Source: Candidatus Krumholzibacteriota bacterium
GTDB lineage: Bacteria > Krumholzibacteriota > Krumholzibacteriia > JAJRXK01
Assembly: GCA_963806035.1 (NCBI GenBank)
Contig: CAWDWO010000007.1
Span: 32,001 to 96,000, forward strand
Reading direction: 5' to 3'
Length of the DNA stretch: 64,000 nucleotides
Shown here: positions 1,846 through 10,407 of the stretch, piece by piece
Layout of the letters: the number at the start of each line of letters is the position of its first letter
How positions within the stretch are numbered: the first letter of the stretch is position 1
The notes under the pieces: model-generated
Database searches by the model: none
Told to the model about the DNA's origin: nothing
Seen by the model: only the letters and a program-made list of their open reading frames with translations
Position numbers and translations under genes: made by a program

Positions 1846-2946
1846 TCATCCCGGCCGACACGAGGTGGAAATTTGCTCTTCTTGGAAGCGCAGGCTGTCC
1901 TCTGCTCGGGGCGCCGGACAGCGCGCGCGCGTTCTAGCCGGCGTGAAAGCGCACGGGGCGTCTTCTCCGCGCGCCAGGACGCGTCCGATGGCCAGGGGGG
2001 GCTCGCTCAACTTTGAAGCGCACTGAGGTGAAATCTCTTCACAGATCACGACCATCCCCAAGCCCAGATTGAAGACCCGCCGCATCTCTTCTTGCTCGAT
2101 GCGACCCCGCTCTTGCAGCAGCCGGAAGATCGGGGGCACTTGCCAGGAGCCCTCGTCGATTTCCACGGCAAGTTCCTTCGGGAGAACCCGCGGGATGTTG
2201 TCGACGAGACCGCCTCCGGTGATGTGGGCCAGCGCGGCGATCGGATGACGAGCGCGCAGTTCCCTCACTTGTGAGAGGTAGCTGCGATGCACCGCGAGAA
2301 GCGCATCGGCGAGCGAACTTCCCAGTCCACCCGGATCCTTTTCGAGGGGAAGCTTCGAATCGCCCTCGAGCAGGACTTTGCGCGCCAGACTAAAACCATT
2401 GGTGTGCAGACCACTGGAAGGCCAGGCGTAGACCCTCATTCCCTCTCGCACCATGGCACCGGTGATGAGGTCCTCCTCCTCCACTCTGCCCACGATGCAG
2501 CCGGCCAGGTCGAAGTCCTCTCCGTGATAGAGGCCGGGCATCTCCGCCGTCTCTCCCCCGATCAATGCACAGCCGTTCTCGCGGCAGGCCTTGGCGAGCC
2601 CCTCCACCACCGCGACGAAGGTCCCCTCGCTCAAGCTCCCCGTCCCGTAGTAGTCCAGGAAGAAGAGCGGGGTGGCTCCCTGAACCAGGATGTCGTTGAC
2701 GCAGTGGTTCACGAGGTCCTCCCCGACCCCGCGCAACTGCCTCGCCGCCAAGGCGATTTTCAGCTTGGTTCCCACGCCGTCGATGGAGGAAACGAGCAGG
2801 GATCCATCGGCTTGGCGGTAGAGACCTCCGAAGGAGCCCACCTCCGACGCGACGGCAGGGCCCCAGGTGGAGCGGATTGCAGCACGGGAGGAGGCGAGCG
2901 CTTGGCTGGCGGCGTCGATGTCGACCCCGGATTCGCGGTATTTCAT
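1846..2946 (-). CDS. purM: Phosphoribosylformylglycinamidine cyclo-ligase
   Basis: MKYRESGVDID, DGVGTK, GGETAEMPG, SSGLHTNGFSLAR, HITGGG, FNLGLG motifs. Confidence 0.97.
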   Translation of the reverse strand: MKYRESGVDIDAASQALASSRAAIRSTWGPAVASEVGSFGGLYRQADGSLLVSSIDGVGTKLKIALAARQLRGVGEDLVNHCVNDILVQGATPLFFLDYYGTGSLSEGTFVAVVEGLAKACRENGCALIGGETAEMPGLYHGEDFDLAGCIVGRVEEEDLITGAMVREGMRVYAWPSSGLHTNGFSLARKVLLEGDSKLPLEKDPGGLGSSLADALLAVHRSYLSQVRELRARHPIAALAHITGGGLVDNIPRVLPKELAVEIDEGSWQVPPIFRLLQERGRIEQEEMRRVFNLGLGMVVICEEISPQCASKLSEPPLAIGRVLARGEDAPCAFTPARTRARCPAPRAEDSLRFQEEQISTSCRPG

Positions 2947-2952
2947 GGCGGC

Positions 2953-2981
2953 ATGCTAGGGCCAGGCGGCTGTCCTGTCAA
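2953..2981 (-). promoter_or_regulatory. Sigma70 promoter for purM (likely leaderless transcript)
   Basis: TTGACA (2981-2976), 17 bp, TAGCAT (2958-2953). The ATG follows after 6 nt and has no SD. Confidence 0.7.
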
Positions 2982-3033
2982 AGATAGGCATCGGGGCGGG
3001 CTCGTACGGCTCGAATGCGCCGTGTGCCGGGCT

Positions 3034-4386
3034 CTAGCCGACGGGCAGGCCGACGGGGACTTCGGCCTCGCGGGTGGCGGCGTCGTGCAGAATTCTCTGG
3101 ATCTCCAGGGCTGTACCGTCGGCCTGGGCGATGACCTTGAAGCTGCCGTCGGCGTACATCGACTCGATGGCGTCGACCACGTCCACTGCGAACTGGCTGC
3201 CTTTGAAGCGGCGCAGCTCGTCCATGCACTGCTCGAGCGAGAGCGCGGCCCGGTAGGGACGATTGGAGGTCATGGCGTCGATCGCGTCGCAGCAGTTCAG
3301 GATGCGACTGCCCAGCTTGACCTCGTCATCACGCAGACCGTCGGGATAGCCCAGACCATCCGGACGCTCGTGGTGGTGATGCACCAGGTCGGCCGCCCCC
3401 TTGAGGAACTTCATTTGCGATACGATTTCGCCCCCGATCGCCGGATGGGAAGCGAGGATGTCGAACTCGTCCTTGGTCAGGCGCGCCGGTTTGCAGACGA
3501 TGTCGTTGGTGATGGCGATCTTGCCGATGTCGTGCAGCAGACCCGCGTATTCGAGTTCCTCCAGCTCCTCGGGCCCCATCCCCATCCGCTGTCCAATCTG
3601 CACCGCATACTTCGCCACGCGATAGCTGTGACCGTGAGTGTAGGGTTCATCGGCTTCCAGGGCGGTGGTGAGCGCGGCCACGGTGTTGATGTGAGCTTCC
3701 TTCATGTCTTCGAAGAGCTTGTGACTCTGCCAGATGATGAACAGCGGCAGACCGAAGAGGAGAAGCGACCACAGTCCGGCGTATTCGTAGGAAAAGATGA
3801 GGAAGGCACTCAGCGGTGCTGCCAGCAATCCGCTCAAGAAATGCCAGGCGTAATCGCCACGCCAAACCTGATTCCAGGTTCGCCCCTCGTTCAACACGAG
3901 TACCGTGCTGGTGAGCGTCATGTTGACGCCCGAAAAAACCATGTGAGCAACGAGTGCGGGAATGAGGAAAAGCGGTGAGGAAAGACTGTCGACACTGCTC
4001 CAAGGCAAACTATGGAACACAACGCCAGCCACCCCGACGGAGAAGGTCATCATCGCGATGTTGAAGACGACCTTCAGCGGAGAGCGGCGCTTGATCAAGC
4101 CATCGCCCACTAGCAAGCTGGCGCCTTCCATCAACATGGCGGCGGCCGGGCCGAGGGTTGCGATCACTGCGATGTCCACGGTAGAGGACGCCAGCCAATC
4201 TCCACCCGCTGAGGTCTTGACTTCGAAGAAGTCGACTCCGATCAAGAACGCGCTGAAGCAGAGAACGGGAAACCAATGCGCCGATGAGATTGGATAGCGC
4301 TGAAATACCCAGGAACCCAAGGCATACGCCGCCAGGATTAGAATCAGCACGTACAGAATTGCGATTGATTTGCGGCGGATATGCAT
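3034..4386 (-). CDS. Membrane HD-GYP cyclic-dinucleotide phosphodiesterase with N-terminal multi-TM (MASE-type) sensor
   Basis: About 7-8 hydrophobic segments, then YTHGHSYRV, LLHDIGK, HHERPDGLGYP, DAIDAMTSNRPYR. Confidence 0.93.
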   Translation of the reverse strand: MHIRRKSIAILYVLILILAAYALGSWVFQRYPISSAHWFPVLCFSAFLIGVDFFEVKTSAGGDWLASSTVDIAVIATLGPAAAMLMEGASLLVGDGLIKRRSPLKVVFNIAMMTFSVGVAGVVFHSLPWSSVDSLSSPLFLIPALVAHMVFSGVNMTLTSTVLVLNEGRTWNQVWRGDYAWHFLSGLLAAPLSAFLIFSYEYAGLWSLLLFGLPLFIIWQSHKLFEDMKEAHINTVAALTTALEADEPYTHGHSYRVAKYAVQIGQRMGMGPEELEELEYAGLLHDIGKIAITNDIVCKPARLTKDEFDILASHPAIGGEIVSQMKFLKGAADLVHHHHERPDGLGYPDGLRDDEVKLGSRILNCCDAIDAMTSNRPYRAALSLEQCMDELRRFKGSQFAVDVVDAIESMYADGSFKVIAQADGTALEIQRILHDAATREAEVPVGLPVG

Positions 4387-4394
4387 GTGACCAA

Positions 4395-4580
4395 GGCCGG
4401 TTGAGAGGAGCTAGACTACCACTTCACCTTGCTACCGAGGACCCAGAACATTTTCCCACCTCACATCGGATTGGATTTGCCGCCATGCTCCGCTAGGGGG
4501 CGGCAGTGAGGCTTCGCTATGCGCTCGGGAATGTTTGCTCCGCTCGGGGTTTCTCTGCAGACAACTCCCCTCAACCGGCC
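4395..4580 (-). ncRNA. Putative ~186-nt rod-like structured RNA/leader upstream of the HD-GYP gene
   Basis: Nested complementarity: 4580-4562 with 4413-4395 (19 bp, the non-Watson-Crick pairs are G-U on the minus strand), 4547-4543/4439-4435, 4535-4530/4452-4447, 4512-4506/4464-4458, 4505-4499/4484-4478. Confidence 0.65.
4416..4451 (-). CDS. Small ORF, 11-aa peptide MFWVLGSKVKW
   Basis: ATG TTC TGG GTC CTC GGT AGC AAG GTG AAG TGG TAG, with GAGGTG SD (4462-4457) 5 nt upstream and an in-frame TGA just before it. Confidence 0.6.
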   Translation of the reverse strand: MFWVLGSKVKW

Positions 4581-4608
4581 AAAAAGAGACCACGACCGAA
4601 GTCGCGAC
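4581..4608 (-). terminator. Intrinsic terminator candidate
   Basis: Minus strand CGCGAC-UUCG-GUCGUG hairpin followed by GUCUCUUUUU, just after the stop of the 249-aa gene. Confidence 0.6.
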
Positions 4609-4614
4609 TTGCCA

Positions 4615-5364
4615 TCAGGCCGAGGCGGCCCGCCACGAGATCTGCTCGAGGGTGGCGTCCTCGTCCTGCACCATCAAGTCCTGAAACTCCGCTTTGCCCA
4701 GGGGACGATTCAGAGCGTCAAGACAGGCGTAAACCGTTGACTCATAAAGAGATCCATTGTCCCAGCAGGTGCCGGCCAGACGCTGGATCTGGCGGTTTGC
4801 GCCAAAATCCAGCACCACGATGACCAGGGACCCGCCGGCCAGGGAAGCCACTCGGGTGGTCCTCAATTGGATCTCATACTGGGGTTTGAGCAAGTTGCGC
4901 ACCGCTTGCACCGCCGCCTGGGCCACCAGTGCCACGCAGGCATCCGCGCCCAGGGCCGGGCCCTCCGAGCGGCCCGGAAGCCCCTCGAAGGCGCCGAGGC
5001 TCAGCTCGACCTCCGCGACGAAATTGCCGCCGCTGGTGGTGGAGTGAACGGCACTGAGACGGATCCGTGGCTCAGAGCGCTCCGGAGTCCGGCTCACGGT
5101 CGATTGGTTTGAGGGAAGGGGGGAAGCGTGAGGGGAATTGAGCTGAACCACGCCGATCTTGCGATGATCGACCTGAATACCGTGGCGACGGAGCACCGCT
5201 TCGACATCGCGCACGATGGGACGAGGAGGGCGCTGGGTATCGCTCAGCACGTCGATCTGTTCGATCTCGCCCTGAGCGTCGAGAATCAGCGACGCATAGC
5301 TCACGTTGCGAATCCTGGAGAGCTCGCGCTCCACCTCCATCACTTTCTTCGAATCGAGTCTCAT
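4615..5364 (-). CDS. Hypothetical protein: small N-terminal domain, P/S-rich linker, C-terminal LeuA-allosteric-domain-like region
   Basis: Clean 249-aa ORF with AGGTGG SD. N-terminal 'RPIVRDVEAVL...VDHRKIGVVQL'. C-terminal 'LAGTC...ESTVYACLDALNR' resembles the end of the LeuA dimerisation domain (resemblance by eye). Confidence 0.75.
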   Translation of the reverse strand: MRLDSKKVMEVERELSRIRNVSYASLILDAQGEIEQIDVLSDTQRPPRPIVRDVEAVLRRHGIQVDHRKIGVVQLNSPHASPLPSNQSTVSRTPERSEPRIRLSAVHSTTSGGNFVAEVELSLGAFEGLPGRSEGPALGADACVALVAQAAVQAVRNLLKPQYEIQLRTTRVASLAGGSLVIVVLDFGANRQIQRLAGTCWDNGSLYESTVYACLDALNRPLGKAEFQDLMVQDEDATLEQISWRAASA

Positions 5365-5496
5365 GGAGCCACCTGAGTTCTTCCTGCCCGTGCCACTGCC
5401 CTGCGAGATTCGTCGTGCTACGACTCTAGCACACGAGCCGAGCCGTCACCAAGTAGGAAACATACTAAGCCATGAATTGACAAAAGATTGAAGGGT

Positions 5497-6402
5497 TTAC
5501 TTCGGCCAGGCTACGAGCTGGCGCAGCTGCGCGCGTCTCTGCTGCACGGCGGCCGGGCTGAGATCCTTCAGGCCGCGGACACTGAAGTCCTCCGCCGCGA
5601 AGCTCGCGAGTACCGTACCCTCGATCATGGCCTCCCGCAGGAGATCGTGATCCAGCTTCTCACGACCGGCCAGATGCCCCAGGAAGCCCCCGGCGAAGGT
5701 GTCACCGGCGCCGGTCGGATCCTTGACCCGGTCCAGGATCACCGCCGGCAAGGCGAAGCGCTGCGCCCCGTCGAAGAGCAGAGCACCGTGTTCGCCCTTC
5801 TTGACGACCACGCGCTCGGGCCCCATCCCCTGGATCACCTGCACCGACTCGACCAGGGAGTGCTTCCCGCTCAGCAGGCGCACCTCCTCGTCGTTGAGAA
5901 AGACGAGATCACAGCGCTGCAGCACCTTGACCAACTCGGCGCGCGAGGATTCGATCCACAAGTTCATGGTGTCCACCGCCACCAGGCGCGGATCCTTGAC
6001 CTGCTCGAGAACTTCCAACTGCAGAGAGGGATGGATGTTGGCGAGAAAGAGAAGCTCCGGGTCCTGAAAACTCTGCGGGAGAACCGGATGAAAGTGCTCG
6101 AAGACGTTCAAGTGAGTGAACAGGGTGTCGCGCCGATTCATGTTCTCGTGATAGCGACCACCCCAGCGGAAGCACTCCCCTTTCTCCACCTGGAGTCCGC
6201 TGGTGTCGATCCCCTTGCTCGAGAGCAGTTCCCGCGCACTCTGGGGAAGATCTTCTCCCACCACGGCCACCAGCCCCACCTGCGCATCGCGTGCAGCAGC
6301 GAGCGAGAAGAAAGTGGCGCTCCCTCCCAGCGCGTTTTCGGCCTTTCCCCAGCAAGTCTCCACCGAATCCAGAGCCACCGAACCTACTACCACGATCTGC
6401 AT
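5497..6402 (-). CDS. PfkB family carbohydrate/nucleoside kinase
   Basis: VVGSVALD, GGSA, NDEE, KKGEHG, DPTGAGDTFAGG. Confidence 0.93.
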   Translation of the reverse strand: MQIVVVGSVALDSVETCWGKAENALGGSATFFSLAAARDAQVGLVAVVGEDLPQSARELLSSKGIDTSGLQVEKGECFRWGGRYHENMNRRDTLFTHLNVFEHFHPVLPQSFQDPELLFLANIHPSLQLEVLEQVKDPRLVAVDTMNLWIESSRAELVKVLQRCDLVFLNDEEVRLLSGKHSLVESVQVIQGMGPERVVVKKGEHGALLFDGAQRFALPAVILDRVKDPTGAGDTFAGGFLGHLAGREKLDHDLLREAMIEGTVLASFAAEDFSVRGLKDLSPAAVQQRRAQLRQLVAWPK

Positions 6403-9659: not shown

Positions 9660-10407
9660 TGTCGTCCGGTTTGCGGTCTTTTCGCCTCCGCATGATCAGG
9701 GCGATGACGACACTGGTCATGTACAGCACCATGACCGGTCCAGCCAGCATGATCTGACTGATGATGTCCGGCGGGGTCAAAATGGCTGAAACGGTCAGAA
9801 TGGCGATGAGGGCGTAGCGCCAGCCCCTGAGCAGCATCTGGGGGTGCACCACTCCGGCCCAGGAGAGAGCCAGAACCACCATGGGCAGCTCGAAGAGCAG
9901 GCCGAAGGCCAGACAGAGCCTCACCGCCAGCTCGAAGTATTCCCGCGCGGTGAGGAGAGGTCGGAGCTGTTCGGTTGCGAATCCGATCGCGAAACGGATC
10001 ACCAGGGGCAAGAGAATGAAAAAGCAAAAGGCGACCCCCACGTAGAATAATCCGGTGGCCGCCACCAGCAGTGGCGTCACCACTCTCTTCTCGCGGGGAC
10101 GCAGGCCTGGCGTGACGAAGCTGTAGAGCTTGAGGAGGATCAGGGGCAGCACCAAGAAGAGACCAACCGCGGTCGAGGCCTTCAACTTGAGCAGGAAAGC
10201 CTCCATCGGTGCGGTGAAGTAGAGACTCTCCTGCCCCGCCTTGCGAGCCGGACCAAGCAATCCGTCGACGATCTGATCGCTGAAGAACCAGGCCACCACC
10301 GTGGCAAGTACCGCGAGCGCCAACGCCCAGAGGATGGTTTTCCTCAGTTCCGCGATATGCTCGATCATCGTCATTTCGCCGCGTGACTTGCCGGCTCCAT
10401 GACTCAT
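9649..10407 (-). CDS. tatC: Twin-arginine translocase subunit TatC
   Basis: EHIAELR, PMEAF, FVTPGLRPREK, FELP, AILTPPD. Confidence 0.95.
   Translation of the reverse strand: MSHGAGKSRGEMTMIEHIAELRKTILWALALAVLATVVAWFFSDQIVDGLLGPARKAGQESLYFTAPMEAFLLKLKASTAVGLFLVLPLILLKLYSFVTPGLRPREKRVVTPLLVAATGLFYVGVAFCFFILLPLVIRFAIGFATEQLRPLLTAREYFELAVRLCLAFGLLFELPMVVLALSWAGVVHPQMLLRGWRYALIAILTVSAILTPPDIISQIMLAGPVMVLYMTSVVIALIMRRRKDRKPDDIDS

Follow-up and report, generated by a model that had tools for sequence, protein, structure and literature searches.

A conserved rod-shaped RNA enclosing a short coding frame with a buried Shine-Dalgarno sequence next to an HD-GYP gene of Krumholzibacteriota

In a 64,000-nucleotide (nt) stretch of the genome of an uncultured soil bacterium, Candidatus Krumholzibacteriota (GenBank assembly GCA_963806035.1, contig CAWDWO010000007.1, positions 32,001 to 96,000; hereafter the window, in whose coordinates all positions are given), the minus strand of positions 4395 to 4580 encodes a conserved structured RNA that encloses a coding mini-open reading frame (mini-ORF) whose Shine-Dalgarno sequence (SD) is buried in the fold. 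The element, here called the rod, lies between an upstream gene, UP, and a gene for an HD-GYP phosphodiesterase that degrades cyclic di-GMP (c-di-GMP), and it probably controls the latter. The reading that we favour, to which we would give an even chance, is that the rod is a translationally locked leader mini-cistron in a transcription unit made up of UP, the mini-ORF and the HD-GYP gene, all on the minus strand. The landmarks of the rod are the following:

4395..4580, minus strand: whole rod-shaped RNA, 186 nt, minimum free energy (MFE) -86.3 kcal/mol, z -5.1.
4562..4580, minus strand: 5' arm of the closing helix, GGCCGGUUGAGGGGAGUUG, from the predicted fold, with compensatory pairs in a 38-sequence alignment.
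4511..4545, minus strand: repeat segment of the 5' strand, with GAGCGGAGC at 4537-4545 and GAGCG...UAGCGAAGC at 4511-4526.
4506..4512, minus strand: anti-SD GCCUCAC, partner of 4458-4464 in the MFE and centroid structures, invariant in the window's family.
4478..4505, minus strand: apical hairpin UGCCGCC / GGCGGCA, whose loop holds the third UAGCGGAGC at 4487-4495.
4457..4464, minus strand: SD of the mini-ORF, GUGAGGUG, 5 nt 5' of the AUG.
4416..4451, minus strand: mini-ORF MFWVLGSKVKW, 11 codons plus UAG, read from the sequence, with a coding signature in relatives.
4395..4413, minus strand: 3' arm of the closing helix, from 2 nt past the mini-ORF stop codon to 8 nt short of the HD-GYP ATG.

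Fold, coding content and conservation of the rod

The initial annotation of this DNA had described a rod-shaped RNA closed by a helix of 19 base pairs (bp), and folding of the minus strand agrees with it: the MFE of the 186 nt compares with a mean of -64.8 kcal/mol (standard deviation 4.2) for shuffled sequences (z -5.10), none of 200 shuffles being as good, whereas the plus strand of the same interval reaches a z of -2.45 only. The closing helix is exactly as claimed, with three G-U pairs where the other strand would have C-A mismatches, and these wobble pairs, together with the compensatory changes among orthologues described below, support the suggestion that selection acts at the RNA level. 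The strong SD (GUGAGGU), buried within the apical hairpin domain, is paired with GCCUCAC in the MFE structure as well as in the centroid, again as proposed, and the last Trp codon and the stop codon of the mini-ORF are also enclosed in the rod, which in both structures has small internal loops and a branched apical domain and no large central bubble. Given a buried SD, two phrases of the initial annotation, translation off by default and, among its candidate roles, a type-I-toxin-like locked mRNA, are fair descriptions of the architecture.

The rod occurs once in the 2.67-Mb assembly (93.7% complete), where the other 12 matches are fragments of 14-24 nt, and this single copy rules out a miniature inverted-repeat transposable element or another repeated element. 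By DNA search, the order UP, rod, HD-GYP was found in 8/9 other genomes of the window's family, and a covariance model of the rod core (R1) recovered the rod in 14 of the 151 genomes of the class, namely the genome itself, 8/9 of the family, 5/43 of a second family and 0/98 of the remaining families; all five rods of the second family are flanked by the same two genes. One DNA match in another family (L023; loci are labelled L plus a number) is a chance match of 26 nt at a locus with neither UP nor HD-GYP. Scanning genome contigs with an alignment of UP yielded 80 loci, 50 of them with HD-GYP downstream, and 37 of the 80 were counted as rod carriers on the basis of an SD-preceded tiny ORF ending in Trp-stop. 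Left out of this count were L040, where a run of N masks the ORF, three loci with a 24-amino-acid (aa) Trp-ending ORF and no HD-GYP in the locus (L085, L086, L097), and two whose ORFs lack an SD and are unrelated (L095, L096); L087 and L100 also stand outside it, having been missed or mis-called by the script, and later inspection found that L100 does carry the peptide and that L087 has a 20-aa version with a TTG start. The run of N in L017/L040, from a same-genus genome (G004), covers the 3' half of the rod and the HD-GYP start, so that this locus is usable only in part. In metagenome contigs, a strict pattern scan added 29 further loci, all 29 with the peptide and the closing helix, which brings the collection to 66 rods, 61 of them distinct, from Krumholzibacteriota and related uncultured bacteria. 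Among the 37 loci the rods measure 180-227 nt (median 188).

The fold is retained across this collection. All 37 orthologues fold better than their shuffles (z -2.4 to -8.9, median -4.75), and each has a closing helix of 10-26 bp whose 3' arm starts 2-18 nt past the mini-ORF stop codon. In a MAFFT alignment of 38 rods this helix is 95.0% paired and 11/12 of its pairs are changed on both sides, where the percentage, unlike the covariation, is inflated by the rod ends having been chosen by a script that maximises complementarity of the arms; 0/500 shuffles reach the observed covariation values, and slid registers pair at 24-53%. For the apical hairpin, pairing is 98.9% and 7/7 pairs are compensatory in an alignment fitted to R1, which leans towards the model and whose 32 rows include one spurious match (E 2.5, window 9874-9975). 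Folding energy relative to shuffles and covariation were both checks that the initial annotation had named, and both came out in favour of a selected structure. Each 5' strand also pairs better with the ORF end of its own locus than with those of other loci (0/5000 permutations as low), and the stop codon covaries with its partner, UAG facing CUA and UAA facing UUA (e.g., L052, L053, L059). The core of the SD is predicted to be paired with P>0.8 in 30/37 orthologues (median 0.99), and GAGGUG is invariant in 38/38 aligned rods. Neither the MAFFT alignment of whole rods nor that of the apical domain was consistent enough inside the rod for RNAalifold, which recovered the closing helix only. At four loci (L078, L098, L072, L115) the first GAGCGG repeat offers a local pairing partner for the 5' closing arm (..GCCGCUC), a possible alternative fold competing with the closing helix.

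The mini-ORF encodes 11 aa in the window's genus, where it is shortened, and 14 aa ending in K-aromatic-E-W-stop in most relatives; within the window's family it has 11-12 aa in three genera and 15 and 19 aa in others. Its coding character was assessed on 30 ORFs of 14 codons, representing 27 distinct nucleotide sequences, in which the entropy at codon positions 1, 2 and 3 is 0.70, 0.55 and 1.10. Among these 27 sequences, E13 and W14 are invariant, position 4 is aromatic with exchange among W, F and Y, position 8 is L, position 9 is F or L, position 11 is K or R, and W, F and Y exchange at position 12, while 13 of them end in UAA and 14 in UAG. Judged from this codon pattern, the mini-ORF is under selection for its amino-acid sequence. 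The invariant C-terminus suggests, by analogy with arrest peptides, stalling of the ribosome at the stop codon, and its E-W-stop ending is a candidate for a new termination-arrest motif. Variants of the ORF were also seen. In four Eisenbacteria loci (L047, L056, L057, L069) an ORF of 20 aa, MWELLLDLLS..F.GKSGWM, follows AAGCGAAGCGA repeats, and its final codons pair with RNA just 3' of the UP stop codon. L085, L086 and L097 share an identical 24-aa ORF ending in Trp-stop (MITIWTAVIGAILAGANWGGRNDW) about 100 nt past UP, with no HD-GYP within the DNA examined, which may be a further variant of the mini-ORF.

Connection with the HD-GYP gene and possible mechanism

The features that flank the rod are these:

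4615..5364, minus strand: upstream gene UP, 249 aa, without a Pfam or NCBIfam family.
4581..4608, minus strand: terminator-like hairpin with U tract in the gap between UP and the rod, also present in same-genus loci.
3034..4386, minus strand: gene for a MASE9 membrane sensor-HD-GYP (HD_5) phosphodiesterase, 450 aa, its ATG without an SD.

The assignment of the downstream gene rests on Pfam matches to HD_5 (E 1.7e-31) and MASE9 (E 2.1e-9) and on an HHExxDGxGYP motif in its translation. For the UP protein, Pfam and NCBIfam scans returned no family, and its AlphaFold model (predicted local distance difference test score 79.6) has an N-domain with the order alpha-beta-beta-alpha-beta and a C-terminal domain resembling the leucine-binding regulatory (allosteric) domain of LeuA (Foldseek E 1.3e-4, with the same lead from Atlas); matches to the double-stranded RNA-binding domain (dsRBD) and to S5 are poor (probability 0.25-0.77, root-mean-square deviation 11-17 A). 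UP lies directly upstream of MASE9/HD-GYP in 50/80 loci, from Krumholzibacteriota, Eisenbacteria, Latescibacterota and others, and has the look of a conserved partner of such enzymes that is as yet undescribed.

The spacing of the locus is what would tie the rod to the phosphodiesterase gene. A short, SD-bearing ORF stands directly upstream of HD-GYP and is conserved across species, as expected of a leader peptide, and in the window's family the HD-GYP ATG follows 9-31 nt 3' of the rod, without an SD of its own. Neither this connection with HD-GYP nor the repeats of the 5' strand had been picked up by the initial annotation. In the folded state neither the mini-ORF nor HD-GYP would be translated, the latter because it has no SD and, in the window, its ATG lies 8 nt from the 19-bp helix. 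A ribosome that initiates on the mini-ORF would unzip the 3' strand of the rod and, once at the UAG, would cover the 3' arm of the closing helix, 2 nt downstream; since the HD-GYP ATG is 8 nt from that helix and 29 nt from the UAG, finishing the mini-ORF would melt the helix and free the HD-GYP start for re-initiation or direct entry. The C-terminal succession of K/R, an aromatic residue, E, W and stop may serve to retain the ribosome when it reaches the end of the mini-ORF. Candidates for what opens the SD in the first place are a factor bound to the (G/A/U)AGCG repeats of the 5' strand, a ligand, or the kinetics of co-transcriptional folding. In other lineages the HD-GYP start is about 100 nt or more downstream of the rod, and some rods there end in a U run (e.g., L071, L054, L139), which makes it possible that in such relatives the same event would act as anti-termination.

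As for its transcription, the 5' arm of the rod starts 1-86 nt (median 17) past the UP stop codon, which in most loci leaves no room for a promoter of its own, and a promoter and terminator scan found no promoter-like site in 3900-5500 on either strand. Part of 4200-4800 occurs in 24 sequencing runs, 18 of DNA and six of RNA, the share being small in both kinds. Four metatranscriptomes, from four studies, contributed six contigs of 159-227 nt that are confined to 4398-4569 out of the 3900-5400 examined; three of these begin at 4398-4400, and one is flanked by what we take to be adapter remnants. No metatranscriptome contig fell on UP or HD-GYP within 3900-5400, which does not show these genes to be silent. 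These contigs, which cannot show transcript ends, strand or level, are a weak hint of a discrete, stable RNA.

Several observations weigh against a locked leader mini-cistron. The peptide is conserved along its whole length and not at the C-terminus alone, which fits a functional micropeptide equally well, and the contigs could equally reflect a stand-alone stable RNA. Seven loci (L060, L062, L065, L068, L073, L075, L077) have UP and HD-GYP without the rod, the gap being about 0-14 nt where measured; as some of the 50 two-gene loci do without it, the rod is dispensable for the UP/HD-GYP pair. The terminator-like hairpin between UP and the rod in this genus is awkward for simple co-transcription, and the transcriptional version of the model is not general, given that the U run is present in some relatives only and absent from the window. 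To the inflated pairing percentage of the closing helix must be added that the SD helix, at 86.4% paired in the R1-fitted alignment, shows compensatory changes in only 2/7 pairs; its strands hardly vary, so that its support comes from conservation and energy and not from covariation. An anchor-based test likewise gave it marginal support (97/2000 permutations as low), both strands being nearly invariant. Finally, the initial annotation had the start codon sequestered as well, by pairing of AACAUU with AAUGUU. Such pairing can form, and to that extent the claim holds, but it is not the MFE register, in which GGGAA is the partner of UUCCC and, within the AUG, UG is matched with the CA of GAGCA, and among the orthologues the AUG is predicted to be paired with P>0.8 in only 2/37 (median 0.59). 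Pairing of the start codon is thus a lineage-specific and not a conserved feature.

Alternative explanations

A possible though doubtful explanation is that the rod is a stand-alone, very stable small mRNA or dual-function RNA that stores and meters a functional, hydrophobic, Trp-capped micropeptide, which could be a membrane-embedded partner or ligand of MASE9, with the closing helix and the buried SD as a storage lock comparable to that of hok or aapA1 mRNAs but non-toxic. Amino-acid conservation along the entire peptide, contigs confined to the rod and the U run past the closing helix in some relatives are all consistent with it, as is the fact that the peptide gene always adjoins the MASE9/HD-GYP gene. 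Eleven to 14 residues are, however, too few to span a membrane, most loci leave no room for a promoter, and the window's family alters or shortens the peptide and yet retains the architecture of the RNA as well as its connection with the HD-GYP start. In its favour is a suggestion made by the preprint that defined MASE9, that this domain binds its ligand within the membrane (bioRxiv 10.1101/2021.11.05.467447). We regard it as unlikely, and more so than the stored micropeptide, that the rod is chiefly a sensor platform on which the repeats, together with a conserved junction in the apical domain, would bind a trans-acting protein, perhaps UP, or a small ligand that sets the exposure of the SD. 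The repeats speak for it: (G/A/U)AGCG pentamers, in many cases as two copies of the octamer AGCGGAGC, recur along the 5' strand of 61/61 rods at 2-6 per rod. They average 3.67, as compared with 0.76 in dinucleotide shuffles and 0.07 in the part formed by the ORF and its 3' side, and since they are kept in the Eisenbacteria versions, which have a different ORF, pairing with the ORF is no explanation for them. Invariance at several unpaired positions, among them GCAA(A/G)nUCC 3' of the apical hairpin, and the LeuA-like domain of UP would suit a sensor. Each repeat is nevertheless partly paired in the predictions (0.57-0.76 per position), no known riboswitch or protein-binding RNA family was matched, UP also adjoins HD-GYP where there is no rod, and the dsRBD and S5 matches of UP, poor as they are, do not show it to bind RNA. 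Nor does the genome, at its 93.7% completeness, offer a familiar binder: CsrA, which would bind GGA-containing repeats, was rejected on finding no gene for it, its family (PF02599) reaching no more than a sub-threshold 18.7 bits, within a frame of 701 aa, and TRAP and HutP (PF02081, PF09021), which bind triplet-repeat leaders of Bacillus, were set aside after neither had a match.

The architecture also recalls toxin-antitoxin systems of type I, where a locked toxin mRNA becomes active on end processing and is kept in check by an antisense RNA. Translation of the hok mRNA is inhibited by fold-back, and type I toxin peptides have about 19-50 aa. Like these mRNAs, whose full-length form is stable, the rod is small and highly structured, and with hok and aapA1 it shares end-to-end pairing and a buried SD that would silence a tiny hydrophobic ORF; for the full-length message of aapA1 in Helicobacter pylori, one study describes a fold that hinders translation until the 3' end is processed (PMC5416894). 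All the same, we consider a classical type I toxin unlikely, and much less probable than the sensor. At 11-14 aa the peptide is shorter than the smallest such toxins we recall, no antisense partner is evident, neither strand has a promoter-like site in the 3900-5500 scanned, and the plus strand folds poorly. The rod is moreover single-copy, abuts the start of a signalling gene and keeps a fixed position between UP and HD-GYP across phylum-level divergence, unlike mobile, multi-copy toxin-antitoxin loci. Least likely of all is that the rod binds RNA polymerase as a second, divergent 6S-like RNA. The initial annotation had pointed out a resemblance to 6S RNA in length and shape, and a size of about 186 nt, the rod form and an apparent stability and abundance would be in keeping with it. 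This comparison did not survive: at E<=10 RF00013 finds nothing in 3800-5400, nor does it reach its gathering score anywhere in the window, the rod lacks the large central bubble, and it encodes a conserved, SD-preceded ORF under coding selection. The genome's canonical 6S RNA is on another contig (L014, G000:C26:171300-171479, minus strand) and reaches 58.9 bits with the RF00013 model, a value that exceeds the gathering score. Rfam, which the initial annotation had named as a check, gave no other identity either, with no family for the rod at the gathering score in the whole window or locally (3800-5400) at E<=10 and no match at E<=1 in six orthologous loci; riboswitch aptamer families, too, had no match in the window or, at E<=1, in those six loci. 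Reassignment to a known RNA is therefore not indicated. Sub-threshold Rfam matches to mir-2765, COG3860, DUF3085 and GlsR5 lie in coding regions and were dismissed as chance.

Relation to known regulatory systems

Among the closest parallels to a locked leader mini-cistron are two systems of E. coli, the trp leader attenuator and TnaC, an arrest peptide. In these, too, a short, SD-preceded ORF comes before the regulated gene and has Trp codons, or else a conserved C-terminal motif, at or next to its stop codon, and whether a downstream RNA element can act depends on where the ribosome stands on finishing the ORF. The likeness of the rod to them is one of geometry, and there are differences: the partner of its downstream arm is far upstream, the whole ORF lies within one rod instead of ahead of a row of alternative hairpins, the SD itself is sequestered, and the gene regulated would be an HD-GYP phosphodiesterase and not one of Trp metabolism. 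Translational coupling, or unmasking by an upstream ORF, offers a similar arrangement of a downstream ATG that lacks an SD and lies by a stable helix meltable by a terminating ribosome, but in the rod the upstream cistron has only 11-14 codons, is itself locked and encodes a conserved peptide. The leaders bound by TRAP and HutP in Bacillus also carry repeated (G/U/A)AG triplets with 2-nt spacers 5' of the regulated start, in long arrays as against the doublets of the rod. What is new is not either of the elements, both of which are known separately, but the combination of a leader micro-ORF with a locked-mRNA fold.

HD-GYP phosphodiesterases with MASE-type membrane sensors are widespread, and very little is known about their inputs or about how they are themselves regulated. 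The only MASE9 protein studied was poorly expressed (bioRxiv 10.1101/2021.11.05.467447). Among the matches listed in literature searches on Krumholzibacteriota and Krumholzibacteria there was no study of RNA regulation, and among those listed for MASE9 and for HD-GYP with a leader peptide or upstream ORF there was nothing similar. The locus provides a testable regulatory element for a MASE9/HD-GYP gene, with 61 natural variants, in which an architecture of the locked toxin-mRNA type is joined to a conserved micro-ORF of the leader type. For phyla without cultured members or described RNA biology, it also contributes two candidate families, one of RNAs and one of micropeptides. A bolder and rather improbable extension would make UP, the rod, the peptide and MASE9/HD-GYP a single undescribed signalling module, in which UP, as a metabolite-responsive binder of the repeats, would toggle access to the SD, translation of the peptide would unlock HD-GYP, and the released peptide would act as an intramembrane ligand of MASE9; if true, such a module would tie the breakdown of c-di-GMP to amino-acid status. 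Elsewhere at the locus, the plus strand has an open frame of 563 aa (2287-3978) across from the genes for HD-GYP and a purM-like protein; in GC-rich DNA such as this, it is most probably a shadow ORF.

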